From Candidatus Saccharimonadota bacterium (GTDB lineage: Bacteria; Patescibacteriota; Gracilibacteria; UBA4473), in NCBI GenBank assembly GCA_965228485.1, contig OZ245819.1, positions 240,001 to 272,000 on the forward strand: a DNA stretch of 32,000 bases, read 5' to 3'. Of this stretch, positions 3,102 through 29,958 are shown piece after piece. Below the pieces are notes generated by a model. It worked only from the letters and a program-made list of their open reading frames with translations. It was not told where the DNA came from and made no database searches. Each line of letters starts with the position of its first letter. Position 1 is the stretch's first letter. The translations under genes and the position numbers were made by a program.

Positions 3102-3145
3102 ATCGTGTCTAGTTTAGTATTAGACTTTCAAAAATCTATATTTTA

Positions 3146-3154
3146 TGCTATAAT
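3146..3154 (+). promoter_or_regulatory. Extended -10 promoter element (TGcTATAAT)
   Basis: TGcTATAAT at 3146-3154 lies 22 nt upstream of the ATG at 3177. This supports the 3177 start over the GTG at 3105. Confidence 0.45.
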
Positions 3155-3176
3155 TCTTAGATTTATTAAATTCATC

Positions 3177-5288
3177 ATGAAATTTCTTCATTCAAAGCAT
3201 TCAAATCTCAACTATCGTTTCATTTATTTTGCTGCTCCTGAGGCGGCGGAAGGCCCCTTTAGCGCTGAAAAACATGTTGTAGAAGAAAAGAGAAGTGATG
3301 AAGACATCAAAAAAGGACTTGCAGAACTTAATACTAAATTTGGGAATCAAGTAAAAGCGGATGACATTCCTAAGTATATCAAAGAAATAGATGGAGAGGG
3401 AGCTGATGAATATATTGATGATATCAAAGATATTCAAGCTCTTGCAGAGAAGCTAGAGAAAATATTTAGCACTAATGGATCCATTGAAGAGTTAGGCTTA
3501 GAAAATCTGACTAAAGAAGAGATGGAGAAAGTTAAAGCTAACATTGGAAAACTAAAAGGAGAATTAGATGAACATTTTAAAGGAAAAGATGTTGATCCAA
3601 ACCTTATTGAATCTTCAATGAATGAAGCTTTAAAAGAGAAAGGGAAAGAAAATCTTATGAATGAAACCTTCGTAATGGGGGTTAAAGATGAAGTTGTTGC
3701 CAAAATTGAACAATCGGCCCTACCTGCAACCGTAAAATTAGCTCAGCAAAAATTTCCAAATGCTACTCCAGAACAGCAAAAAGCTATCGGACAAGCCATT
3801 GGACAACTAGATAATAAGATTCTTGATGCCCTTCGGAAAAATGATGAGCCTATTCCAGGAATAAGTAGCGATCATATTGATCCCCGAATTACAAAAAAAG
3901 TTGAAGAAAAAATCAACGCATTGGTTGATACGCTAAAGGACAAAAAGCCAGAAGAAGTTCTTTCAGCCCTAGATTCCGGAAGTGATGCAATCGTCAAGGC
4001 TATCTTAGAAGATCCAATCTTGCAAACTATCAAAGAAGAAAGAGAAAAAGCTTATACAGATAAAAGTTTGAGTAACGAGTCTTTAGCAACAGGAGTTGTT
4101 AAAGAAAATCCTGAAGATGGAGAATCACCATTGGATCTTCGAGAAGGAAGTATTTATAAAGTTGAAGATCTTAATGTTGGTCCACCAGCTCAAGATATCA
4201 AATTTCCAAATTCAGAAGATCTCAAAACAATTGGGGCCGGGGACTTATACCCACCAGAAGTTAGAGCTATTAGCATTAATGGTAAAACCGCAACAAGAGA
4301 AGGAGTTGGTGGTGGATTTTTCTATGAAAACGGAGAATATGCAAAAATTGTTGATGGAGATAAAGTTGAAGTTAGTAAATTAGCAAGCACGGAAACAGAA
4401 GAAGGTAAAGCCCTTATGAGAGAGCTAAACGAAATGCGAGAATCTCAAGCTAAAGCAAGTGAAGAATTTAAATTTGAATACCGAGGTGAAGACAGAGAAA
4501 TTGAAGTCGCTCCAGGGCAAAAGTTTAAAACTTCTGAACTAGTGGCTCAAATGTCAGAACGATACGGTATAGACCCAAATCTACTTATGGAAAGAGCTGG
4601 GGAGATTAGCTCCCAAGGAACTGAATATCTGAAAGATTTGAATATGACAGCTCGAGCGATCCAAAAATCGCTAATAAGCTCTGGAGTACCAAAAGAAGAA
4701 TGGTATGTGACTCAAAATGGGAGAAGATATATGAATCCTAAACTTCTTCGAGGTTTTGTAGGAGGAAATGAAGAAGCCGTTGATCGATACGTAGAAAGTA
4801 GCGGTGCTCAATATACAGAAGACGAAATCAAAGAATTAAAAGAGGCTTTCCCAGGACTTGATGGTCTGGATGGAGCGGATAGATTAAGTGATGCCCAAGT
4901 GAGAGCTGCTTTAGGAAGTAAGTTTAATATTAAGTCAGGCGCACACCTCGAAGGGTACAGAGCTTCTGCTACTCAAGGACTTTTACTCTTGCATGAATGG
5001 GTTAATAGTAAAAACGGCGGGAATGCCCCGAAAGGAACTATTACTGATTTAACCAATACAGGAAATCTTGGTGGCGGTGTTCGCCATGCAGGAGGTACGT
5101 ATTCTCACGGAAACGGATATAAGGCAGACTTACGTTCTTGGGATGAATTTGGTAAAGCTCTAGCTAACGCTACAGGGTTACACCGAAACGGTAGCATGAC
5201 CATTACAAGTATTCCTGGATATCAAATTAAGGTTTTACGTCATAGAGGGACTGGTGATCACTTTGATGTACAGTTTAAGCCTGCTTAA
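3177..5288 (+). CDS. Large acidic Lys/Glu-rich protein with a C-terminal LAS/peptidase-M15-like zinc-hydrolase signature (putative cell-wall hydrolase)
   Basis: The ORF is open from 3105 (GTG). The ATG at 3177 is preferred because the promoter lies inside 3105-3176. The first ~450 aa are low-complexity and E/K-rich. The C-terminus carries SHGNGYKAD, i.e. H-x6-D (H at 5106-5108, D at 5127-5129), plus GDHFD (H at 5259-5261) 44 aa later. That geometry is seen in VanX/VanY, hedgehog and DD-carboxypeptidase folds. Confidence 0.4.
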   Translation: MKFLHSKHSNLNYRFIYFAAPEAAEGPFSAEKHVVEEKRSDEDIKKGLAELNTKFGNQVKADDIPKYIKEIDGEGADEYIDDIKDIQALAEKLEKIFSTNGSIEELGLENLTKEEMEKVKANIGKLKGELDEHFKGKDVDPNLIESSMNEALKEKGKENLMNETFVMGVKDEVVAKIEQSALPATVKLAQQKFPNATPEQQKAIGQAIGQLDNKILDALRKNDEPIPGISSDHIDPRITKKVEEKINALVDTLKDKKPEEVLSALDSGSDAIVKAILEDPILQTIKEEREKAYTDKSLSNESLATGVVKENPEDGESPLDLREGSIYKVEDLNVGPPAQDIKFPNSEDLKTIGAGDLYPPEVRAISINGKTATREGVGGGFFYENGEYAKIVDGDKVEVSKLASTETEEGKALMRELNEMRESQAKASEEFKFEYRGEDREIEVAPGQKFKTSELVAQMSERYGIDPNLLMERAGEISSQGTEYLKDLNMTARAIQKSLISSGVPKEEWYVTQNGRRYMNPKLLRGFVGGNEEAVDRYVESSGAQYTEDEIKELKEAFPGLDGLDGADRLSDAQVRAALGSKFNIKSGAHLEGYRASATQGLLLLHEWVNSKNGGNAPKGTITDLTNTGNLGGGVRHAGGTYSHGNGYKADLRSWDEFGKALANATGLHRNGSMTITSIPGYQIKVLRHRGTGDHFDVQFKPA

Positions 5289-6984: not shown

Positions 6985-7027
6985 TTCTTATCCATCTTAT
7001 TAATTTTTGATTTTTTAAAAATTCAAA

Positions 7028-7055
7028 TTGACGCCTTTTTTATGATGCATAATTT
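7028..7055 (+). promoter_or_regulatory. Putative promoter immediately upstream of ATG 7063
   Basis: TTGACG (7028-7033) and TGcATAATT (7046-7054). The -10 element ends 8 nt before the ATG, so the transcript may be leaderless. Confidence 0.35.
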
Positions 7056-7062
7056 AAGCTAA

Positions 7063-7650
7063 ATGGAAGCTTATGATTTACGTGACGTTCTACAAAAAGA
7101 ACCCGAAGTACTAGAAACTTCGATTGGACGAAAACAAGCAGAATTTATCTGTGCACAAACAAATCGTCGAATATTGATTGTTACTTCTGGAATAGAAGCA
7201 CGAACTGCAGCGTTTGTCAGAAAAGGGGAGAGTGCTTTACACCTGAATGAAAATCTAGCCGCCAATGATAACCCATCAATTTCCCATGTAATAAAGCATG
7301 AAGAAAATCACTTCAAACTTCCTTGGGAGTTAAATTTTAGCTCTTTCCCTCATAATAAGGCTTGCATTTTGGCTCAGCACCTAGGTATTAGCCCTGAAGA
7401 AGTACTTGAGGATCGTTTTTGGATAGAAGGGGCCGTGGAGGCCAAGACTATCGGCGAAAAGGGAATTGATCATAATGTAGCTTATTTACATAGAGAGGTG
7501 CCAGTTTTTGAGCACCTAAATCAACTTTTTATGAAACATACAGGAAAAAGTTTTAAAGCTTTATTTATTAAAGGAAAGGAAGAAGAAATTGTTCAAAGTA
7601 TGCTGGATTTGGCCAATATTCTAGAATTAAAAGCCCAATTAGCAGCCTAG
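7063..7650 (+). CDS. Hypothetical protein
   Basis: 195-aa ORF with no family recognised. Its stop (TAG 7648-7650) directly abuts the stop of the convergent gene (7651-7653). Confidence 0.5.
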   Translation: MEAYDLRDVLQKEPEVLETSIGRKQAEFICAQTNRRILIVTSGIEARTAAFVRKGESALHLNENLAANDNPSISHVIKHEENHFKLPWELNFSSFPHNKACILAQHLGISPEEVLEDRFWIEGAVEAKTIGEKGIDHNVAYLHREVPVFEHLNQLFMKHTGKSFKALFIKGKEEEIVQSMLDLANILELKAQLAA

Positions 7651-8784
7651 CTATTTAGTTTTTATAAATCCCGCCTTTATAGCCGCTTCTTCGCTTTCGA
7701 AACACTTTTCATATTCGATTCTTTTATACCAACCAGAAAGGGGAGTGTGATAGGTTTTTACTGGATTCTTCTTGCTTCCAGAAATATTCCCTTTAATTCT
7801 ACAATCCTCATCGTAATCTTTAACTTTTTTCATTACGGTCTCCTTATGCACTATAGAGTCTAGGCACTCCTTCCAAGCGCTTGGTAATGTTCTAAAAGTA
7901 GAGTTACCACTAACTCTAAACGCTCTATTATATTTTTTATCTAGAGTATTTTTATCAAAGAACATAAGCCCCATACTTATAAATTCATTTGAAACGAGAC
8001 TATTACGGTTTGGTAAAACTCTCCAAACATGTCGGACTATAGTTTTACGTTCTAAACTTTCTGTAACATCCGGTTCTAATATAACCTTTCTTCCTTTGAT
8101 GTTTTTATTAAGCCATTCAATTCTTTTGGAATTCAAACATCGATCTAATTCTACTTTACTCGTATTAATGGAGCTTGCTGTTGCGATGTTTATAATTGTA
8201 TCATCGTGTGCCAAAAGTCTGTTTTCATCAATCACATCTTTTATCCAGGTTACTCCCGTTCCCTTCGATATGATAGAATTTTGTCTATCCAAAATCAGTT
8301 TTGCTTTGTTTAATTCATTATAGATATAACAACTGCCCCAAACTCCCAACTTACTTTTCATAGCTTGGCTTTGTAATAATAATTTTTTCTTCTCATTCCC
8401 TAAATACTTTGCCCAGCCCTGCTCTATAAAAAACTTTTTGAGATCAGTTCTCCCTTTTTTTAATTTTATATTTCCATAAATATAAAACGGACGATTTCGA
8501 ACTCTTTTGTGTTTCTTTTCTACTTCAATAAACACTGTTTGATTCTTTATATTTTGATTTACGAAATATTTTACCTGTTCCTTAAAACAGTTGGTTTCAA
8601 GATTTTCATTTGTAAAATCGACCATCTCTAAATCGTTGAAAATAAATATTTGGCCATTGTAAAGCTGCCATTTATCAGCATTAATAATGGATCTCACTTT
8701 ATAGGAATTAAAATCAGCTTCTATTTGAAAGCTTGGAAACAGGAGTAAAAAAAGGATTGTCAAAGGTGTTTTTTTTCTTAGCAT
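7651..8784 (-). CDS. Secreted protein with two degenerate thermonuclease (SNase)-like domains and a C-terminal KGNI..YH.P...Y...E.CF.SEEAA..AGF domain
   Basis: N-terminal signal peptide MLRKKTPLTILFLLLFPSFQIEA. Two regions end in SNase-like strings (FIEQGWAKY...AMKSKLGVW; EFISMGLMFF). The last 50 aa (7654-7803), CRIKGNISGSKKNPVKTYHTPLSGWYKRIEYEKCFESEEAAIKAGFIKTK, resemble the conserved C-terminal module found on many secreted nucleases. Confidence 0.45.
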   Translation of the reverse strand: MLRKKTPLTILFLLLFPSFQIEADFNSYKVRSIINADKWQLYNGQIFIFNDLEMVDFTNENLETNCFKEQVKYFVNQNIKNQTVFIEVEKKHKRVRNRPFYIYGNIKLKKGRTDLKKFFIEQGWAKYLGNEKKKLLLQSQAMKSKLGVWGSCYIYNELNKAKLILDRQNSIISKGTGVTWIKDVIDENRLLAHDDTIINIATASSINTSKVELDRCLNSKRIEWLNKNIKGRKVILEPDVTESLERKTIVRHVWRVLPNRNSLVSNEFISMGLMFFDKNTLDKKYNRAFRVSGNSTFRTLPSAWKECLDSIVHKETVMKKVKDYDEDCRIKGNISGSKKNPVKTYHTPLSGWYKRIEYEKCFESEEAAIKAGFIKTK

Positions 8785-8808
8785 GCGGCCGATTTTTTAA
8801 AAATACCT

Positions 8809-10077
8809 ATGGCTAATTACAAGACACTTCCTAAATCAAAAGTTAATTTCACCCTTAAAGTGGATAAAACTGCTATCGAAAATGCTCGAAAAACAGTTAT
8901 TCAGCACATGAAAAACCAAATTTCTATCAAAGGCTTCAGAAAGGGACACGCTCCAGATGACTACGTAGTGGCTCAAGTTGGAGTTCAGAAAATTGCTTTT
9001 GAAGCTATGAATCAGGCTATTGACAAGGCTTATGCTAACTTTATAAAAGAAAATAATCTGCAAGTTATTTCTCAGCCAGAAGTAGATATCCCGTCACCAG
9101 ATAGTGATCCTATTGAAGTAAAATGTGAGGTAGAGATTTACCCAGAGATTACCGTAGGAGATTACAAGAAAATTAAAGTTAAAAAAGAAAAAATTGAAGT
9201 TGAAACCAAAGAAATTGAAGATGTTCTTATGACCGTTTGTGCCCAAATGGAGGCAGGAGAAGAGGTAAAAAGGGCTGCAAAGAAAAATGACCTTGTAGAA
9301 GTAGATTTTGCTGGAATTGATGACAAAGGGAAAGAAATTCCAAATACAGCAGGGAAAAATATGACATTTAGATTGGGACAAGGACACTACCTTCCTGATC
9401 TCGAAAAAGCTTTTGAAGGCATGAAAGCTGGAGAAGAAAAGAAAGCTGTAAAAGTAAAATTCCCGAAAGATTATCACTCAGAGGACTTTGCAGGAAAAAT
9501 AGTCAACTTTGATGTAGCCGTTCACAAGGTAAGTGAAATTAATCCAAATAAGCTTACAAAAGAACAAATCCAACAGATCTCAGGGAAAGAACAAAGTCTG
9601 GATGAGCTTAAAGAAAGCATCAAAAAAACCATCACTCAAAATAAGACTCAAGCCAAAGAACAAGAATGGATTGCTGATTATTCAACTCAACTTGCAAAAC
9701 TTGTAAAGGCGGACCTCCCACAGAGCTGGTTAGACAGAGAAGTAAGCTCTAGGCTTGCAAGATTAAAACAAAACCCTCAGTTTCAATCCAATCCAGAACA
9801 ATTCTGGAAAGCTATGGGGAAAGATGAAGAAGTCTTTAAAAAAGAACTAGCCTCAGAGGGGGAAAAAGACCTAAAAGTTTTCCTTGGACTCTCTGAAATC
9901 GTTAAAACTGAAGGTATTACCTTAGATAAAGATGAAAAAACACAAGCACATCACATAGCACGGCAGAACATAGGTCATGATCACCATCATGGACACTCTC
10001 ATGACGTCGAAGTTGAAAAAGCTGAATTAAACCTAAAAATTGACAAATTCCTTCGCTCGACTATAATAGAAGGATAG
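8809..10077 (+). CDS. tig: Trigger factor
   Basis: N-terminal ribosome-binding signature GFRKGHAP, a central FKBP-type PPIase region (DFAG.DDKG...F.LGQG...P.LE.A..GMKAGE) and a C-terminal arm. Unusual His-rich segment GHDHHHGHSHD near the C-terminus. Confidence 0.9.
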   Translation: MANYKTLPKSKVNFTLKVDKTAIENARKTVIQHMKNQISIKGFRKGHAPDDYVVAQVGVQKIAFEAMNQAIDKAYANFIKENNLQVISQPEVDIPSPDSDPIEVKCEVEIYPEITVGDYKKIKVKKEKIEVETKEIEDVLMTVCAQMEAGEEVKRAAKKNDLVEVDFAGIDDKGKEIPNTAGKNMTFRLGQGHYLPDLEKAFEGMKAGEEKKAVKVKFPKDYHSEDFAGKIVNFDVAVHKVSEINPNKLTKEQIQQISGKEQSLDELKESIKKTITQNKTQAKEQEWIADYSTQLAKLVKADLPQSWLDREVSSRLARLKQNPQFQSNPEQFWKAMGKDEEVFKKELASEGEKDLKVFLGLSEIVKTEGITLDKDEKTQAHHIARQNIGHDHHHGHSHDVEVEKAELNLKIDKFLRSTIIEG

Positions 10078-17932: not shown

Positions 17933-20200
17933 ATGATGCAATTGCGCGATGAAAGTGAATATTTAGAGATAGTGCCAGAGCGTTTTTTGGAAACCTGCAG
18001 AGTATTAGTTATAAAACCCTCAAAAGAAGGAAAAACTCAAATACTTACCTGTTCAAATCAGAGCAACTTGGGGAATCGGAAAGGAAAAGATGAAGATAAA
18101 AAAGGAAAGACAGAGCTCCCTGGGGGAAAGGTTTTTGATAATGATGAAGAACAAAGACTATTCTTAGAAAAAAACCCAGACCAACAAGAGGTGGATCGAG
18201 TCTTTACCGCCGCAAATGAACTAGAACAAGAAACTGGGCTCTATATCAACCCAAATAGATTTAAACGAATTAACTCTGTAGATCGAAAGATGATAGGGAG
18301 GTTTGAAAAAATTCCAGGAGTTGATCATATAAGGACTAACTTCTATCTTGTAGTATTAAACCCCGAGGAATATGAAAAGCCCCCCCAAAACTGGACCGCT
18401 CAAGAACATAGTGACGATAGGCATGAGAGGACTGCTTGGGAAGAGCTTGATTTACAAGACTTCTCTTCAGGAGGATCTTTAGACTGGTTTATTGCAAAAA
18501 ATAGTCTCTTAGAAGAAGATACTGTCGAACAGGCTGAAGCTGCCATCGCAGAACAGTTATCGGACACACGTGCAAAAGTTACACAAGTGGCTACTACTCA
18601 TAATTCCATTATCAGAGGGGCAGAAGTAACCACCTCTGATACTTATTCAAAAACAAGAGAGAAAGGAACTCAAAAGGCATCAGCCATTGACTTCAATAGA
18701 GATCAGCCACTTGATTATGAAGAATTTTGCGAAGCTTACCGCGTTCATTTTGGAACCGCTCTTGATGTTCAGGAAGTGAATAGAAATATAAAACATATTC
18801 TACAAAATTACTGCATTCCACAAGTAAGTCGCCGAGTAGCGTTTATGCAAGAGTATTCAGAAGCAAGAGGCCAAAACCCTATAGAAAATTCAAAAAGAGT
18901 TAAAAGGCATTTACAAACAATTGTTGAGAGACTCCAAACCCCCAAAGGCTTTTATCGTTTTTATACCCGAGCCAATAAATCAAAACTTGGACGTCGCCTT
19001 ATGAAATCTTTTTTTGGGTTTGGTAAGATATCCCAACTTCCATACTTTGATTATATTAATGCTTACTCTTCCCAATTTAATGGAGCCTTATCGGCTGAAA
19101 CAGAAAAAGACAATCAAACAGGACGAACTATGATTCGTGGTTTTACTCATGGAGAAAAGTGTTTCCTTGAGTTAGATTCTAATACAAAAACTACAGAGCG
19201 AATGGCCAGTAAATCTACCACAAAAGTAGAAATTGATCCTTATGATATTAAAGATATTTATCGAGCGAGAATTGTGGTCGATAGTGAGAAAAACATTGAT
19301 GAAGTCATAACTTTTCTTTGTACTAAATTTGGGAAAAAAGATAGCCAAAAATCAAATTCTTGGAAACTCGAAGTCAAACAAACCGAACGCACAAATGTAA
19401 ATGCTGATACTTCTCGAAAAGAGGTTAAAGTTTTGGGGTCATTCCCATTACCAGGCAACCCAAAGATCAGAATTCCAATCGAGATACAGATTATGACCCA
19501 AGAAAACTTTGATCAAAATGAAGCTGGGGCCAATCATCATGATGTTTATGTAGCTATTCAAACACTTGTCGAAGACTCTAGACCGACTGAAGCGATAGAT
19601 AAGGGAAGTTATGAAAGCATTATCAAAGAACTGGTAAATACGCCGAATGTTTATCGATCTTATCCTGATTACACAGAAAGAAAAAAAAGAAAATTTCAAT
19701 CACGTTTGGAACAAGAAATCAGAGAGCGAATGAGAAATTATTTTTTTGAAAGAAAGGATGGTTATTACGCCTACCAACATGTTGTAAGACTCCGAAATAT
19801 CTCTGATGTAGTAAAAAGAGAAGATGAAGCATTTCGATACATGACCGAAAAACTCAATATTGACTGCGGAACGAAACTTCATGCCCAAGACTGGAAAATG
19901 CTATTTGATAATCCAGAACAGCTAAGCCCTCAAATCACTTTTGAACGAATCGGCATGAATATTTTCAAATGGGCTGAGCGAATTTCAGAAATTAAATGGG
20001 ACGTAGATTTTGATCCAGAAATAATTATTAAATCTTTTGTTCTGCACTTGAATACTCGTTTTGTTATGGCTGATAGAGCTTTTTGGAACAAAGTTATTCA
20101 GGGCACAAAATTAAACACTAAATCGGAAAAAGGTCAATATAGGAACCTTCTTAAAGACTCTGATTTCAAAAAGATTCATGGATATAGAGGCAGATCTTAG
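17933..20200 (+). CDS. Multidomain protein: atypical Nudix-like N-terminal domain, degenerate RelA/SpoT (RSH)-like nucleotidyltransferase core, unknown C-terminal ~200 aa
   Basis: Nudix-like region (aa ~20-185): CRVLVIKP, ELPGGKV and AANELEQETGL (18215-18241; cf. REUxEExGU). RSH-like region (aa ~400-545): DIKDIYRARIVVD (19253-; cf. DxxGxRii), IPIEIQIMT (19481-19498; cf. EIQIRT) and HHDVY (19535-; cf. HxxYK). Confidence 0.45.
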   Translation: MMQLRDESEYLEIVPERFLETCRVLVIKPSKEGKTQILTCSNQSNLGNRKGKDEDKKGKTELPGGKVFDNDEEQRLFLEKNPDQQEVDRVFTAANELEQETGLYINPNRFKRINSVDRKMIGRFEKIPGVDHIRTNFYLVVLNPEEYEKPPQNWTAQEHSDDRHERTAWEELDLQDFSSGGSLDWFIAKNSLLEEDTVEQAEAAIAEQLSDTRAKVTQVATTHNSIIRGAEVTTSDTYSKTREKGTQKASAIDFNRDQPLDYEEFCEAYRVHFGTALDVQEVNRNIKHILQNYCIPQVSRRVAFMQEYSEARGQNPIENSKRVKRHLQTIVERLQTPKGFYRFYTRANKSKLGRRLMKSFFGFGKISQLPYFDYINAYSSQFNGALSAETEKDNQTGRTMIRGFTHGEKCFLELDSNTKTTERMASKSTTKVEIDPYDIKDIYRARIVVDSEKNIDEVITFLCTKFGKKDSQKSNSWKLEVKQTERTNVNADTSRKEVKVLGSFPLPGNPKIRIPIEIQIMTQENFDQNEAGANHHDVYVAIQTLVEDSRPTEAIDKGSYESIIKELVNTPNVYRSYPDYTERKKRKFQSRLEQEIRERMRNYFFERKDGYYAYQHVVRLRNISDVVKREDEAFRYMTEKLNIDCGTKLHAQDWKMLFDNPEQLSPQITFERIGMNIFKWAERISEIKWDVDFDPEIIIKSFVLHLNTRFVMADRAFWNKVIQGTKLNTKSEKGQYRNLLKDSDFKKIHGYRGRS

Positions 20201-24322: not shown

Positions 24323-25270
24323 AAAGATAAAGAATGCCCCAAGGTAAAAAGCCACTAGAATGGCCGCATTCGCTCGATTCATTTTACCATGCACGTAAAA
24401 AATCGTCATGGCAGATAAGCTGGCCACAAACCAAATTGGAATCGCTGTAAATAATAAGAAATCTGAAACTTTATATCCATGAGCCAAAACTGCCCCAATC
24501 CCAAGAGAAAATAGCGGATCGGTTATATTTGACCCTAAAAGATTTCCCAGAGATATCCCCTGTGATCGACGAATAAGCGCCATCATTGAAATTGATAACT
24601 CCGGAATGGAAGTTCCTATTCCAGAAAACAATCCTATGACGCCCTGATCAACTCCTGCTTGTTCTCCGGCATTAATCCCAATACTGAGGAGAATTTCGGC
24701 AGAAAACCAAACTAAAGCGCCTCCAAACAAAAAAGCGAGAACATTCAAGGGTAGGCTGGAAATACTTTTTCGAACGTGCCATTCTTTTCGATTCGCCACT
24801 AACAAGTAGTAGGTATAGAAAACATAAGCAAAAATGAGTAGTAATGCTTCTCCTGTCGCTACCGTTCCATCCATTCCAATCAAAAACAGAGCGATAATTG
24901 CCCCCAAAACCATTAGTGCATCTCTTTTGAATTCTTTTTTATCCCTTTTCATCACTCCTCCCACAAGAACACAAAGCCCCAAAATAAAAGAGATTTGCAC
25001 AAAACAACTTCCGACAATATTTCCCACCCCAATATCATCTACTCCACGAAGACCGGCAGAAATATTCACAAAGATTTCTGGTAAACTTGAACCAATAGAC
25101 ACAATGGTTAAACCGATAATAAGCTCTGATATACCAAACTTTCGGGCAATTCTCTTTACGCCCCAAATCACGTTTTCTGAGCCATACCACAAACCAACAA
25201 TAGCTATGACTGCGGCTAATGCCTGCATAAACCAAGGCAAAGAAAGAAGGTAATTAAAAAAAGGTTCCAT
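24314..25270 (-). CDS. Ca2+/cation antiporter (CaCA family, YrbG-like)
   Basis: ~10 TM helices with the two alpha-repeat signatures GSSLPEIFV and GTSIPELSIS. Confidence 0.85.
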   Translation of the reverse strand: MEPFFNYLLSLPWFMQALAAVIAIVGLWYGSENVIWGVKRIARKFGISELIIGLTIVSIGSSLPEIFVNISAGLRGVDDIGVGNIVGSCFVQISFILGLCVLVGGVMKRDKKEFKRDALMVLGAIIALFLIGMDGTVATGEALLLIFAYVFYTYYLLVANRKEWHVRKSISSLPLNVLAFLFGGALVWFSAEILLSIGINAGEQAGVDQGVIGLFSGIGTSIPELSISMMALIRRSQGISLGNLLGSNITDPLFSLGIGAVLAHGYKVSDFLLFTAIPIWFVASLSAMTIFYVHGKMNRANAAILVAFYLGAFFIFLT

Positions 25271-25833
25271 TATTTGATAGTATCAAGAAGTTGTTTAGAA
25301 GATTTTGCGGCCAAAATAGCAGGAGAAACTACAGGTCCATAGTTGTCACTAATATTTTCCAAGGAAACTCCACGAGATTGGAGCAAAAGCACCAAATCAT
25401 TAGGTGTACCACAAAATGTTTTTGGATCATCATCTTTTAGAGCTGAGGCAAATTGCTGCCAAGTACTATCTACAACAATCGGTCCATCTGAAGTATAAAT
25501 AGCCGTGTAACAATGATAATTTCCGCCTCGATGCTGTCCAATCTGTCTATCATGAGCGGTTACTCCATTTTCTTCTAAAAATTTGGTATTAGCCATCCCA
25601 AATTGCCTACAGAGATTAGCACGATGATAATCTTTTGTATTCATTCTGTGTCTATTCATTTTCCACCACTTTGGATCATCTATTAGCTCCGTATTTATTA
25701 GCATCATTTCCACTCTTCTTGATTCTCCTTCGTCAAGCATAGTCTGTACTTTGGGAATAAGCTCTTCTCTCGGTTGATCCAACCCCAGATAAGCATCATC
25801 TACGAATTCTTTTGGTCTTAATATCTTATTCAT
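25270..25833 (-). CDS. Hypothetical protein with a transglutaminase-like / papain-fold Cys-His-Asp arrangement
   Basis: NLC75RQFG, then NYH107CYTAIY, then VVD122STW. The spacing (C-32-H-15-D) and flanking residues resemble the transglutaminase-core pattern G.C..f...(30-45)...HaW.ev...(15)...D. Codons checked at 25609-25611, 25513-25515 and 25468-25470. Confidence 0.35.
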   Translation of the reverse strand: MNKILRPKEFVDDAYLGLDQPREELIPKVQTMLDEGESRRVEMMLINTELIDDPKWWKMNRHRMNTKDYHRANLCRQFGMANTKFLEENGVTAHDRQIGQHRGGNYHCYTAIYTSDGPIVVDSTWQQFASALKDDDPKTFCGTPNDLVLLLQSRGVSLENISDNYGPVVSPAILAAKSSKQLLDTIK

Positions 25834-26487
25834 CTACTTAAAAATTTTAAAAATTCTAGGGTTTATAGGGTCGTAAATAATTTTAACCTCCCTATTTTTT
25901 GGAATTGAATACTGATTAAAGCAGTAGTAAAAAGGCTTAACTTTAAAAGTATTTCCTTGAATATTAACTAAGTTATTACTATCAATCATAGCTTTGGCAA
26001 TAATACCATTTCGCTTAAGGCGAATATCGTAATACTTTTCTTTAATATATAGAGGTACAAATAGGGATAACAGAACAATATAATATCCAAATCTATCAAT
26101 AACTTGCTTTGGAAATGCCAATATATTTTCTAGATACCCAACTATAAAGGAAATTAAAATTAAAAAAATAAGAATCGGAAAGACTACTTTACTAGCCTCT
26201 AAGAAGTCATTATTAACACTTGAGACACAATGCTTTTTGTCATGACTCATTGATGGCTTCAAATAATTTTTATAAAGGTTATAGATAATATTTACAAAAA
26301 AAGCACAAAATAGTAACACCCAGGCTTTACCACTTACTTCTATAATATCATATTTTAAGATTAAAGAACTTTTAAATATCCTGGGATATAAGATTAATAT
26401 AAACGGATATAAAATCGAAAGATAAAAAACTGATAGCCAAAACATCCCTATATTACCCTTTCCTAAAAGCTTTTCGTACTTATTCAT
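25834..26487 (-). CDS. Integral membrane protein with a DUF3592-like C-terminal domain
   Basis: Four or five hydrophobic helices. The C-terminal soluble part ends in ...EVKIIYDPINPRIFKI, resembling the v.YdP.nP motif of DUF3592. Confidence 0.4.
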   Translation of the reverse strand: MNKYEKLLGKGNIGMFWLSVFYLSILYPFILILYPRIFKSSLILKYDIIEVSGKAWVLLFCAFFVNIIYNLYKNYLKPSMSHDKKHCVSSVNNDFLEASKVVFPILIFLILISFIVGYLENILAFPKQVIDRFGYYIVLLSLFVPLYIKEKYYDIRLKRNGIIAKAMIDSNNLVNIQGNTFKVKPFYYCFNQYSIPKNREVKIIYDPINPRIFKIFK

Positions 26488-28635: not shown

Positions 28636-28644
28636 TGGTATAAT
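28636..28644 (+). promoter_or_regulatory. Extended -10 promoter element (TGgTATAAT)
   Basis: TGgTATAAT at 28636-28644, 15 nt upstream of ATG 28660. Confidence 0.45.
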
Positions 28645-28659
28645 TACTAGATTTATTTC

Positions 28660-29958
28660 ATGAAAAAAGTCTTAACAAAACACTGGTTACAGATATTTCT
28701 TATTTTAACACTCTTTAGTGGGTGGGGAATTATTGAAACCAATAAAGTAAAGGCTTATAGTTTTAGCTACCAATACGGTCATTACGAACCAATAGGGGAG
28801 TATTACTGGTTTTCAAATAGTTTATATTATTTCCCTAATCCACCGACCGTTAATCCTTTTCCTGTACCAGATAATAATGGTTGCCCTTATCCTAAATTAC
28901 CAAAGTGTAAGGATGGCTATCTAGAATCGCTTGGTTATCAAGGAAAATGTTTTTTAGGTTTTAGGTGTGATAAGAGTGGAATAAAAAATTGTCCTAAAGT
29001 TGAAATCCCTACCTGTGAAGTTGGAATCCTTAAATTCTTAGGCTATGACAATAATGGGTGTTCAACTGGGTATAGATGTGAACCAAGTAAATATTGCGGG
29101 AGCAAACCTCTGCCTCGATGTCCAGGAGGGCGCTACATTCACAAAGGCTACGATACAAAAGGTTGTAGTTTGGGGTATGAATGTAAAAAACTTTCTTCTT
29201 GTCCAAGAGTAATTATTCCAGAATGTCCTCGTGGAAAACTCGTCAACCTTGGATACAGTAATGGGTGTTTTAATGGATATCGATGTGAGCCAGCACCACA
29301 ATGTCCAAAAATAGAAATTCCGTTCTGCACAGGAGGCAAATTAGTATCCAAAGGATATAAAGATGGTTGCTTTCAGGGATATTCTTGTGAAAATATTAGT
29401 CAATGCCCAAAGATAACATTCCCAAACTGTCCAAATGGGCGATTAGTTTCTAAGGGCTACGAAAATGGATGTAATCTTGGTTATACTTGCCAAACCATTG
29501 CTCAGTGCCCAAGGATAAACATTCCTCAATGTTCAGGTGGAAGACTTGTCTCTAAAGGCTATGAAAACGGATGCCATCTTGGTTATGAATGTCAACAAAG
29601 CAATCGCTGTGGTGAACGGAGTATTCCAAGCTGTCCCAATGGAAGACTTGTCTCTAAAGGTTATAGTAACGGATGTCATTTAGGGTACGAATGTAAAGCT
29701 ATTAAACAGTGTAATCCGGTAATCCCACAATGTCCTGGGGGGAGGCTGGTAAGCCTCGGCTATAAAGATGGGTGTTTTCTTGGTTATCAATGCAGCTTTA
29801 AAGATGGAAGAGGGTATGGCGGTGAGTTTCACTCAAGTGCACCAGTAGATGAGAATATTGATAAGAAAGTTTCAAAACCTTCACGAGTTTTCAGTCGTAA
29901 ACCACTTCAGTACAAATCACATTCTTACTGGATAAAGGTTAAACCAAGACAAAAGTAA
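28660..29958 (+). CDS. Secreted or membrane-anchored cysteine-rich protein with nine tandem ~34-aa 4-Cys repeats
   Basis: N-terminal hydrophobic signal/anchor (HWLQIFLILTLFSGWGII), an aromatic/Pro-rich linker, nine units of consensus CP+I.IP.CPGG+LVSKGY.NGC.LGY.C..... and a basic C-terminal tail. Confidence 0.7.
   Translation: MKKVLTKHWLQIFLILTLFSGWGIIETNKVKAYSFSYQYGHYEPIGEYYWFSNSLYYFPNPPTVNPFPVPDNNGCPYPKLPKCKDGYLESLGYQGKCFLGFRCDKSGIKNCPKVEIPTCEVGILKFLGYDNNGCSTGYRCEPSKYCGSKPLPRCPGGRYIHKGYDTKGCSLGYECKKLSSCPRVIIPECPRGKLVNLGYSNGCFNGYRCEPAPQCPKIEIPFCTGGKLVSKGYKDGCFQGYSCENISQCPKITFPNCPNGRLVSKGYENGCNLGYTCQTIAQCPRINIPQCSGGRLVSKGYENGCHLGYECQQSNRCGERSIPSCPNGRLVSKGYSNGCHLGYECKAIKQCNPVIPQCPGGRLVSLGYKDGCFLGYQCSFKDGRGYGGEFHSSAPVDENIDKKVSKPSRVFSRKPLQYKSHSYWIKVKPRQK
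28882..29808 (+). repeat. In-frame tandem repeat array, nine units of 99-108 bp, inside the Cys-rich CDS
   Basis: Unit boundaries were set at the first Cys of each module (aa 75-383). Units 7 and 8 share long near-identical DNA stretches (ggaagacttgtctctaaaggctatgaaaacggatgccatcttggttatgaatgtcaa vs ggaagacttgtctctaaaggttatagtaacggatgtcatttagggtacgaatgtaaa). Confidence 0.8.

Follow-up and report, generated by a model that had tools for sequence, protein, structure and literature searches.

Nine tandem four-cysteine modules in a predicted exported protein of a Gracilibacteria-type bacterium: a small domain family outside the curated collections

What kind of protein consists of nine small cysteine-rich modules set one after another, and what could a bacterium with a reduced genome use it for? 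The question is raised by an open reading frame (ORF) on contig OZ245819.1 of assembly GCA_965228485.1, within a stretch of 32,000 nucleotides (positions 240,001 to 272,000, forward strand) that we call the window and by whose own numbering all coordinates are given. The gene is complete, running from an ATG to a TAA at 28660..29958 on the forward strand, and its 432 codons plus stop encode a 432-aa protein that we refer to as Q. It was first described by a model that worked from the letters and the ORF translations (hereafter the sequence-only reading), as a secreted array of nine tandem repeats that could not be placed in a known family. We find that Q represents an undescribed small domain family, possibly with a new fold, within the recognised class of cysteine-rich exported repeat proteins.

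Anatomy of the protein and age of its repeat

The limits of the ORF given by the sequence-only reading stand, as does most of the anatomy that it outlined. The first 32 residues (28660..28755) have the make-up of a signal peptide, or of an anchor helix as that reading allowed, with a basic n-region (MKKVLTKH), a hydrophobic core of 17 residues (WLQIFLILTLFSGWGII) and the stretch ETNKVKA followed by Y, which places a cleavage-type site between VKA and YS. Hydropathy is highest over aa 9–27, the most hydrophobic 15-aa windows beginning at aa 9–13. Cleavage by signal peptidase I after VKA is predicted from the −3/−1 rule, or the helix may instead persist as an uncleaved membrane anchor; judged from this N-terminus, Q is almost certainly exported. 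There follow an acidic Tyr/Pro-rich linker or tip (aa 33–72, 28756..28875) with 10 Tyr, several Pro and an isoelectric point (pI) of 4.1, then the nine modules, and finally a tail (aa 382–432, 29803..29955) of pI 10.1 that is without a hydrophobic or sorting motif and is strongly basic over its last 27 residues (29875–29955; pI 11.2, with nine Lys or Arg and no Asp or Glu). The mature protein is composed of 12.5% Gly, 9.2% Pro, 9.0% Cys, 8.8% Lys and 8.0% Tyr. A motif scan of Q found no LPxTG-type sequence ([LIVN]P.[TSA][GASN]), as had been stated, and no PEP or CxxC motif. No C-terminal hydrophobic segment is present (hydropathy reaches at most −0.31 over the last 60 residues) and no lipobox lies at the signal peptide, the first Cys being at aa 75 and the sole lipobox-like match at aa 178, within module 3.

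All 36 cysteines of Q fall within aa 75–378, in nine consecutive groups of four, one group to a module, and all nine modules are encoded on the forward strand. Module 1 (aa 73–108, 28876..28983; C-x7-C-x13-C-x5-C) is the most divergent, scoring 26.0 bits against a profile built without Q, to which all module scores given here refer. Modules 2 (aa 109–143, 28984..29088; 49.3 bits) and 3 (aa 144–178, 29089..29193; 38.1 bits) share the spacing x7/x14/x5. The next five have x7/x13/x5 and are exactly 34 aa long: module 4 (aa 179–212, 29194..29295; 42.7 bits), module 5 (aa 213–246, 29296..29397; 42.1 bits), module 6 (aa 247–280, 29398..29499; 49.0 bits), module 7 (aa 281–314, 29500..29601; 51.1 bits) and module 8 (aa 315–348, 29602..29703; 43.6 bits). 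Module 9 (aa 349–381, 29704..29802; x6/x13/x5) is 33 aa long and scores 35.5 bits. The sequence-only reading had proposed a fixed spacing of C-x7-C-x12/13-C-x5-C and a length of 34 aa for units 4 to 9; the outer gaps hold apart from the x6 of module 9, the middle gap is one residue longer than stated, at x13 or x14, and the length applies to units 4 to 8.

That the repeat is genuine and not a chance pattern is clear from two independent results. In 20,000 residue shuffles of mature Q the pattern C-x6/7-C-x13/14-C-x5-C arose 0.09 times on average and three times at most, against nine occurrences in the protein, a number that none of the shuffles (0/20,000) reached. A profile hidden Markov model (HMM) built from the modules of other proteins matched all nine modules at 26–51 bits each, for a total of 327.5 bits and E=3.6e-95 (scaled to 1.8 billion sequences).

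The claims made about the age of the array did not survive. Units 7 and 8 had been described as near-identical in DNA and taken as the mark of recent expansion by unequal recombination, with copy number possibly varying between strains; they are 62% identical over 102 nt (50% at third codon positions), and even the best 75-nt core reaches only 76%. Across all full 102-nt units pairwise DNA identity is 50–68%, with third codon positions at 35–53% and thus close to saturation, and no array is detected by Tandem Repeats Finder. No identical stretch in the gene exceeds 21 nt, a length attained by one run in module 7 (29538–29558) that recurs in module 8 (29640–29660). Such low identity and such short identical runs mean that the duplications are old; they also leave little substrate for unequal homologous recombination and make an assembly artefact very unlikely.

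An uncurated module family and its predicted fold

Searches of curated families gave nothing for Q. In Pfam no model exceeded its cut-off, the sole match being Cutinase at 25.6 bits against a cut-off of 25.9; it covers 20 of 173 profile positions, on a GYSxG motif that recurs in several modules, and was judged spurious. NCBIfam returned no family at E<=10 and PHROGs none at all, so that neither a catalytic nor any other known domain is found in Q with these three collections. The gathering thresholds of the Myxococcus cysteine-rich repeat, Kazal, antistasin, EGF, Sushi, hevein/CBM18 and TIL families were likewise not reached. Against the sequences of the PDB, phmmer with Q gave a best E of 0.57, a one-module profile (A2) a best E of 0.029 from fragmentary 10-residue matches, and a three-module profile (A3) a best E of 0.24, to the double-knot spider toxin DkTx. 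Searches of phages and plasmids by tblastn had zero matches, and no description of a module of this type was found in the literature. No place could be found for the module in any curated family or solved fold, in agreement with the sequence-only reading, which could assign it to no known family.

In place of a characterised family, a repeat profile recovered uncurated relatives. When 1.84 billion cluster representatives were scanned exhaustively by HMMER with the module profile, 147 proteins came up at E<=1e-3, of which 36 reached E<=1e-10 and six E<=1e-30; the family is defined here by profiles A1 and A2. Word-indexed searches perform poorly on this repeat: three of them returned 2, 5 and 5 matches and missed the closest homolog of Q (P0006, described below), which is why an exhaustive profile search was needed. 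Exactly four Cys are present in 184 of the 192 full-length modules collected from relatives. The commonest spacing in the family is 7/14/5 (86 modules), the 7/13/5 typical of Q being rarer (13 modules). Among 464 aligned module hits, 253 are fully aligned with all four cysteines in place and one carries a single substitution, the others being alignment truncations. The family consensus can be written xxCPxxxxPxCxxGTLVSxGxDxNGCxLGYxC, and Q has each of its marks: gaps of about x7, x13–15 and x5, a P before and a G after the second Cys, G-C at the third and G-[YF]-x-C at the fourth. The aromatic residue of L-G-Y-x-C is nearly invariant across the family, modules of the Q type carry a second G-Y, and loop residues are among the most conserved positions of the module.

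The company that the module keeps is varied. A simple heuristic finds a signal-like N-terminus in 113 of 148 family proteins, as in Q. Among 87 members scanned with Pfam, 32 carry PG_binding_1 and 19 a PKD domain, no Pfam family covers the module itself, and isolated members bear a Kazal domain, antistasin together with Somatomedin B, or a sialate esterase domain. One named member, a hypothetical protein of Labilithrix sp. (Myxococcota), means that the module is not confined to the Candidate Phyla Radiation (CPR). Q has the top total score and the highest copy number among clean matches to the canonical module. Its true homologs P0003, P0004, P0005 and P0010, which combine PG_binding_1, modules and PKD, are also exported and share the four Cys, the P and G positions and L-G-Y-x-C; they have 2–5 modules with an x14 gap and N-G-T-L-V-S-x-G-T-D, flanked by wall-binding and Ig-like domains, whereas Q has nine modules, mostly with x13, and no other recognisable domain. 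With some 150 clusters at 50% identity and no counterpart in Pfam, NCBIfam or the PDB, the module is a candidate for curation as a domain family of its own.

Two variants within the family may be recorded separately. The widespread form of the module (P0003–P0012 and others) has the consensus C-P-N-G-T-L-V-S-N-G-T-D-x-N-G-C with two N-x-T sequons per module, and these N-G-T sequons may be glycosylation sites or purely structural; they are missing from the modules of Q, whose single N-x-S lies at aa 245. Three long members (P0017, P0023 and P0040) have a lipoprotein-type signal ending F-Q-N-C and 8–11 matched stretches (5–6 by a stricter local HMM search), which would make their module arrays lipid-anchored in those lineages.

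Structure prediction gave a confident module. AlphaFold2 modelled modules 5–7 from a 24-row alignment of three-module segments with a mean predicted local distance difference test (pLDDT) of 87.9, no residue below 70 and a predicted template-modelling score (pTM) of 0.38; module 7 alone, with 102 aligned modules, gave a pLDDT of 88.1. The secondary structure is the same in each module: about 13 irregular residues that hold the first Cys, two prolines and the second Cys, then strand 1 at residues 14–18 (xLVSx), a tight turn G-Y-x-N-G-C containing the third Cys, with bridges at 21–22 and 25–26, and strand 2 at residues 29–33 (Y-x-C-x, with the fourth Cys). The module is thus confidently predicted to be an irregular Pro-rich N-terminal segment and a beta-hairpin. 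High pLDDT together with low pTM suggests well-defined beads of uncertain mutual orientation, in keeping with beads on a string, one of the two arrangements that the sequence-only reading had put forward.

Foldseek found no significant counterpart of this predicted fold, and these nulls are read in the light of its little power on 34-residue domains. With three modules the best PDB match had E=0.33 and template-modelling (TM) scores of at most 0.23, the top matches (CCP/Sushi arrays, TNFR1 and the VWF C domain) sharing no more than a generic beads-on-a-string shape. With one module the best was E=2.1, in a list headed by small ribosomal proteins that we suspect to be zinc-binding. The viral BFVD gave a best E of 0.27. 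The CCP/Sushi, EGF-like and TNFR cysteine-rich domains are, as the module of Q would be, small disulfide-stabilised beta-rich units in linear extracellular stalks, and CCP also has four Cys; CCP, however, is about 60 aa long, and EGF and the TNFR domains have six Cys, as against 34 aa and four Cys here. With no Pfam match, E>=0.33 and TM<=0.23, there is no evidence of homology.

Two bodies of earlier work make the general type of protein less unusual than the sequence-only reading had supposed when it called disulfide-rich repeat proteins uncommon in bacteria. Secreted cysteine-rich repeat proteins (SCREPs), which have a signal peptide and tandem small Cys-rich domains, are said to be frequent in bacteria and eukaryotes, many bacterial cases being listed in the survey that describes them, and avidity is a recurrent theme among them (Maxwell et al. 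2018, PMC6262176). Q qualifies by its signal peptide and its self-aligning tandem Cys-rich domains. SCREP is, however, an architectural label and not a homologous family, and those of its members that have been characterised are animal toxins or inhibitors of two domains, each with at least three disulfides; Q has nine modules, probably with two disulfides each, and is without similarity to SCREP domains (the DkTx match is not significant). Closer to home, Cys-rich large extracellular proteins with proposed roles in rigidity and attachment have been noted in Peribacteria (Peregrinibacteria, CPR), whose genomes contain a single gene for a disulfide-forming protein beside many for exported proteins rich in Cys (Anantharaman et al. 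2016, PMC4736985). The comparison with Q is one of shared properties, namely a signal peptide, Cys content (7.2 ± 2.4% against 8.3% in Q) and clade (Gracilibacteria-class CPR), to which may be added the lack of functional annotation and variability between strains or lineages. The Peribacteria proteins differ in being much longer (1,655 ± 751 aa), in lying partly in a 14-gene cluster and in their weak similarity to Myxococcus Cys-rich repeats, which Q does not have.

Locus history and the role of the array

Q is flanked by the gene for ADP-forming acetyl-CoA synthetase (ACS), which gives a handle on its host. Identity of the window ACS to its counterparts is 68% in a 'Candidatus Gracilibacteria bacterium' metagenome-assembled genome (MAG; L004), 66% in a Crystal Geyser MAG (L005; L006 and L007 are from this organism too) and 71% in a 1.33-Mb sister contig (L001, ENA/NCBI), whose gene order from RelA/SpoT to RsmI is the same as in the window. 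Identity of ACS and the size of the sister genome contig support a reduced Gracilibacteria-class CPR bacterium as host, in line with the reduced organism that had been suggested.

What lies between ACS and the neighbouring SNF transporter gene differs among these relatives. Over 22 kb in both L004 and L005 no module-encoding sequence was found, and SNF adjoins ACS with a gap of about 110–250 bp. The sister contig carries two tandem module genes in this interval. The first (6999–7910) encodes P0006, of 303 aa, with a signal peptide, a Tyr/Asp-rich acidic linker, five modules and a short basic tail; the second (8001–9392) encodes P0002, of 463 aa, with a signal peptide, a PKD-like N-terminal domain (DFGDGNS), four modules and a 174-aa Lys/Arg/Thr-rich tail of pI 11.1. 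The PKD, module and basic-tail layout of P0002 also occurs in P0022, from a different source. P0006 is the closest to Q (38–41% identity, E about 1e-46, with an architecture common to both), and its Tyr/Asp-rich segment resembles the linker of Q in composition without detectable sequence similarity. Modules of Q resemble one another (50–72%) more than any module of P0006 (41–60%). The sum of five and four modules invites the idea that Q is a fusion of the two paralogs; this finds no support, all modules of Q being nearer or equally near to P0006 than to P0002 and the tails being unrelated. Q is best seen, on these sequence comparisons, as an ortholog of P0006 with a different module number.

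Housekeeping neighbours are 52–79% identical between the source genome and L001, against 38–41% for Q and P0006, and the gene is present, absent or duplicated in relatives; it is therefore a lineage-specific, fast-evolving insertion between ACS and SNF. Repeat number does differ between related assemblies, and, read from these sequences, the variation in copy and module number is one between lineages over long time, not one between strains by recent recombination. A collection of 15 billion proteins does not contain the exact protein, and no relative above about 50% identity was found there or in JGI (Joint Genome Institute) metagenome contigs. A metagenome scan with Q found nothing, the same scan with ACS found only the Crystal Geyser organism again, and the L001 proteins, when looked up in the protein collection, were all in singleton clusters.

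What might such a protein do? Our favoured reading, held with moderate confidence, is that Q is a Sec-exported, non-enzymatic structural surface protein, a disulfide-stapled rod for attachment or spacing. Once the signal peptide is removed, mature Q would consist of an acidic Tyr-rich N-terminus, nine independently folded modules of about 34 residues and a basic unstructured tail. Each module would have its irregular C-P-x5-P-x-C segment packed on a beta-hairpin with the G-Y-x-N-G-C turn, held together by the four invariant Cys, most likely as two intramodule disulfides; invariance of four Cys in exported proteins with extracellular domains makes two disulfides per module the simplest assumption. 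A chain of such modules would be a stiff rod, resistant to proteases and heat, whose length we put at about 20–27 nm with EGF and CCP modules as a guide. It would most likely serve at the cell surface, for multivalent attachment or as a spacer. The basic tail is probably the holding end, gripping anionic envelope polymers or membranes electrostatically; the opposite end, and the repeated faces of the rod with their many Tyr and Lys, would be offered to a partner cell or surface.

Several features speak for this picture. The termini of Q and P0006 are conserved in composition, Tyr-rich and acidic at the N-terminus and basic at the C-terminus, which suggests two different 'sticky' ends. The four closest relatives likewise have basic tails, those of P0006, P0002 and P0022 being unrelated in sequence to the tail of Q, and this recurrence despite unrelated sequence supports the favoured reading. 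Fast evolution together with presence, absence and duplication is typical of surface and interaction proteins. The Peribacteria proteins offer a precedent (PMC4736985), and the high avidity of tandem Cys-rich domains in characterised SCREPs (PMC6262176) points the same way. Sortase anchoring of the kind found in monoderm bacteria does not apply: Q shares with LPXTG proteins its export, its repetitiveness and a positively charged tail, but has neither their motif nor their C-terminal hydrophobic segment, and the sortase gene that the sequence-only reading had placed in the window was not found. No Pfam sortase model matched the window ORFs of at least 100 aa or the partial genes at both ends, the one at the 3' end being an RsmI-type methylase; seven Pfam-unannotated ORFs and one weakly matched ORF, rescanned at E<=1, and those seven with Q, compared with NCBIfam, also gave no sortase.

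Other points weigh against an anchored, disulfide-stapled rod. The function assigned to Q is drawn from its sequence and a structural model. A recognised anchoring motif is missing, which leaves surface retention conjectural, and Q may be released from the cell instead. Several family members carry their modules at the C-terminus and not between an anchor and a distal domain, so a spacer cannot be their universal role. Among the 464 aligned module hits there are no natural pairs of Cys losses that would reveal disulfide connectivity, and no gene for DsbA, DsbB, VKOR or a thioredoxin-fold protein lies within the 32-kb window. Quinones are generally lacking in CPR bacteria, which puts the route by which the disulfides of Q would be oxidised in doubt.

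The modules could instead be lectin-like, the conserved G-Y aromatic binding peptidoglycan or an envelope or host polysaccharide, so that the array would decorate or cross-brace the cell's own wall. Frequent fusion to PG_binding_1, the near-invariant aromatic with its second copy in modules of the Q type, and the wealth of Tyr, Lys and Gly in Q are all compatible with this. A dedicated peptidoglycan-binding domain in those fusions suggests, however, that wall binding is not the task of the module itself; the conserved Tyr may do no more than pack on a disulfide, and similarity was found neither to hevein/CBM18, LysM or SH3b nor to any carbohydrate-binding family. We regard wall or glycan binding as an unlikely alternative to the structural rod.

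More doubtful is the proposal that the four Cys of each module ligate one Zn or Fe, in the manner of a rubredoxin or zinc ribbon. It would suit an anoxic, quinone-lacking life, it accounts for exactly four invariant Cys per module, and it needs no Dsb or VKOR gene, none of which is seen in the window. The lack of CxxC or CPxC knuckles nevertheless argues against zinc knuckles, redox motifs and classical Cys4 metal sites, for which a 7/13/5 spacing is atypical, and the Foldseek matches to small ribosomal proteins stand at E>2. The family is, moreover, exported and found alongside the disulfide domains Somatomedin B, antistasin and Kazal, and the related Peribacteria lineage encodes a disulfide-forming protein (PMC4736985).

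We give as little credence to a multi-headed inhibitor or effector, in which nine modules would bind a host protease, channel or receptor with avidity, like tandem Kazal or antistasin domains or bivalent toxins. Module size and Cys density are those of small inhibitor or toxin domains, characterised tandem Cys-rich domains do act by avidity (PMC6262176), and isolated family members also bear Kazal or antistasin domains; that co-occurrence, however, extends to only 2–3 of 87 proteins, no similarity to inhibitor or toxin families emerged by sequence or fold (the best toxin match being the DkTx one at E=0.24), and the conserved loops leave no hypervariable 'reactive loop' in evidence. Finally, the idea that Q is no real feature, whether because the ORF is false or because a repeat was collapsed or expanded in assembly, has in its favour the absence of the exact protein from the large collection and is effectively refuted by the length of the ORF (432 codons, at a genomic GC content of 36%), by syntenic homologs that keep the Cys pattern while their DNA has diverged, by units too dissimilar (50–68%, at most 21 identical nt) for assembler mis-joins, and by an independent profile that matches all nine modules.

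Gene signals, neighbouring genes and implications

Direct reading upstream of Q reveals an extended −10 promoter-like element, TGGTATAAT, at 28636..28644 on the forward strand, 15 nt 5' of the ATG, which a promoter consensus scan missed because its −35 is poor. No Shine-Dalgarno motif lies between this element and the ATG. A Shine-Dalgarno-like motif within 20 nt upstream is present in one of 27 window genes and absent from the other 26, so its lack at Q is normal here, and translation initiation in the source organism appears to be independent of it. The Q gene is convergent with the SNF transporter gene, with a 6-bp gap between them. The window encodes ordinary housekeeping genes, is about 93% coding and has a GC content of 30.5–41% per kb, about 36% overall.

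Stop codons in the window are unusual in their distribution: 27 long ORFs end in TAA (17) or TAG (10) and never in TGA, which is also absent in frame. The closest relative with a name carries the label Gracilibacteria, and some lineages of that class use code 25 (TGA=Gly); on the sister contig L001 TGA serves as a stop once among 16 genes. An alternative code with TGA as Gly, as in BD1-5 Gracilibacteria, was considered and set aside, there being no in-frame TGA and relatives occasionally stopping at TGA; the standard code with rare TGA is simplest, and TGA seems to be strongly avoided rather than reassigned. The Q ORF has no in-frame TGA and reads identically under codes 11 and 25.

Some neighbouring genes deserve mention in their own right. 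Between the Na/Ca exchanger and ACS lie two ORFs on the reverse strand, 25270–25833 (187 aa) and 25834–26487 (217 aa), the latter resembling a multi-pass membrane protein; both are missing from syntenic L001, where the exchanger and ACS abut. They were considered as DsbB or VKOR and rejected, having no CxxC and no family matches. A 377-aa protein without a Pfam match (7651–8784, reverse strand) ends in a 'sunset domain' (NCBIfam NF051437, E=3e-11), which otherwise appears in NCBIfam as C-terminal extensions of ribosomal proteins L17, S2, L20 and L4, and a 727-aa ORF with a GTG start (3105–5288, forward strand) matches nothing in Pfam or NCBIfam. The RelA/SpoT match of a 755-aa protein (17933–20200, forward strand) is sub-threshold (23.7 bits against a 27-bit cut-off); its position is conserved in L001, where the match is equally faint, and the protein is possibly a divergent (p)ppGpp synthetase/hydrolase.

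For the biology of this group of bacteria, Q does not overturn current views, Cys-rich exported proteins having already been noted in a related CPR lineage, and alone it neither settles nor opens a major question. The boldest version of the finding, that the 34-residue unit is a new extracellular fold and Q an attachment fibril of about 25 nm on a CPR episymbiont, with 18 disulfides made without a quinone-dependent DsbB or VKOR, strikes us as decidedly unlikely; if true, it would imply an undescribed oxidative-folding pathway, or oxidation driven by host or environment, in quinone-less CPR. Little has been established about the way in which CPR (Patescibacteria) cells attach to their hosts, and their surface proteins are mostly unannotated; Q raises the question of how quinone-poor CPR oxidise exported proteins so dense in cysteine. 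Curating the domain family and studying its structure on a small scale would be worthwhile, and at 34 aa the module is small enough for nuclear magnetic resonance (NMR), chemical synthesis and disulfide mapping.

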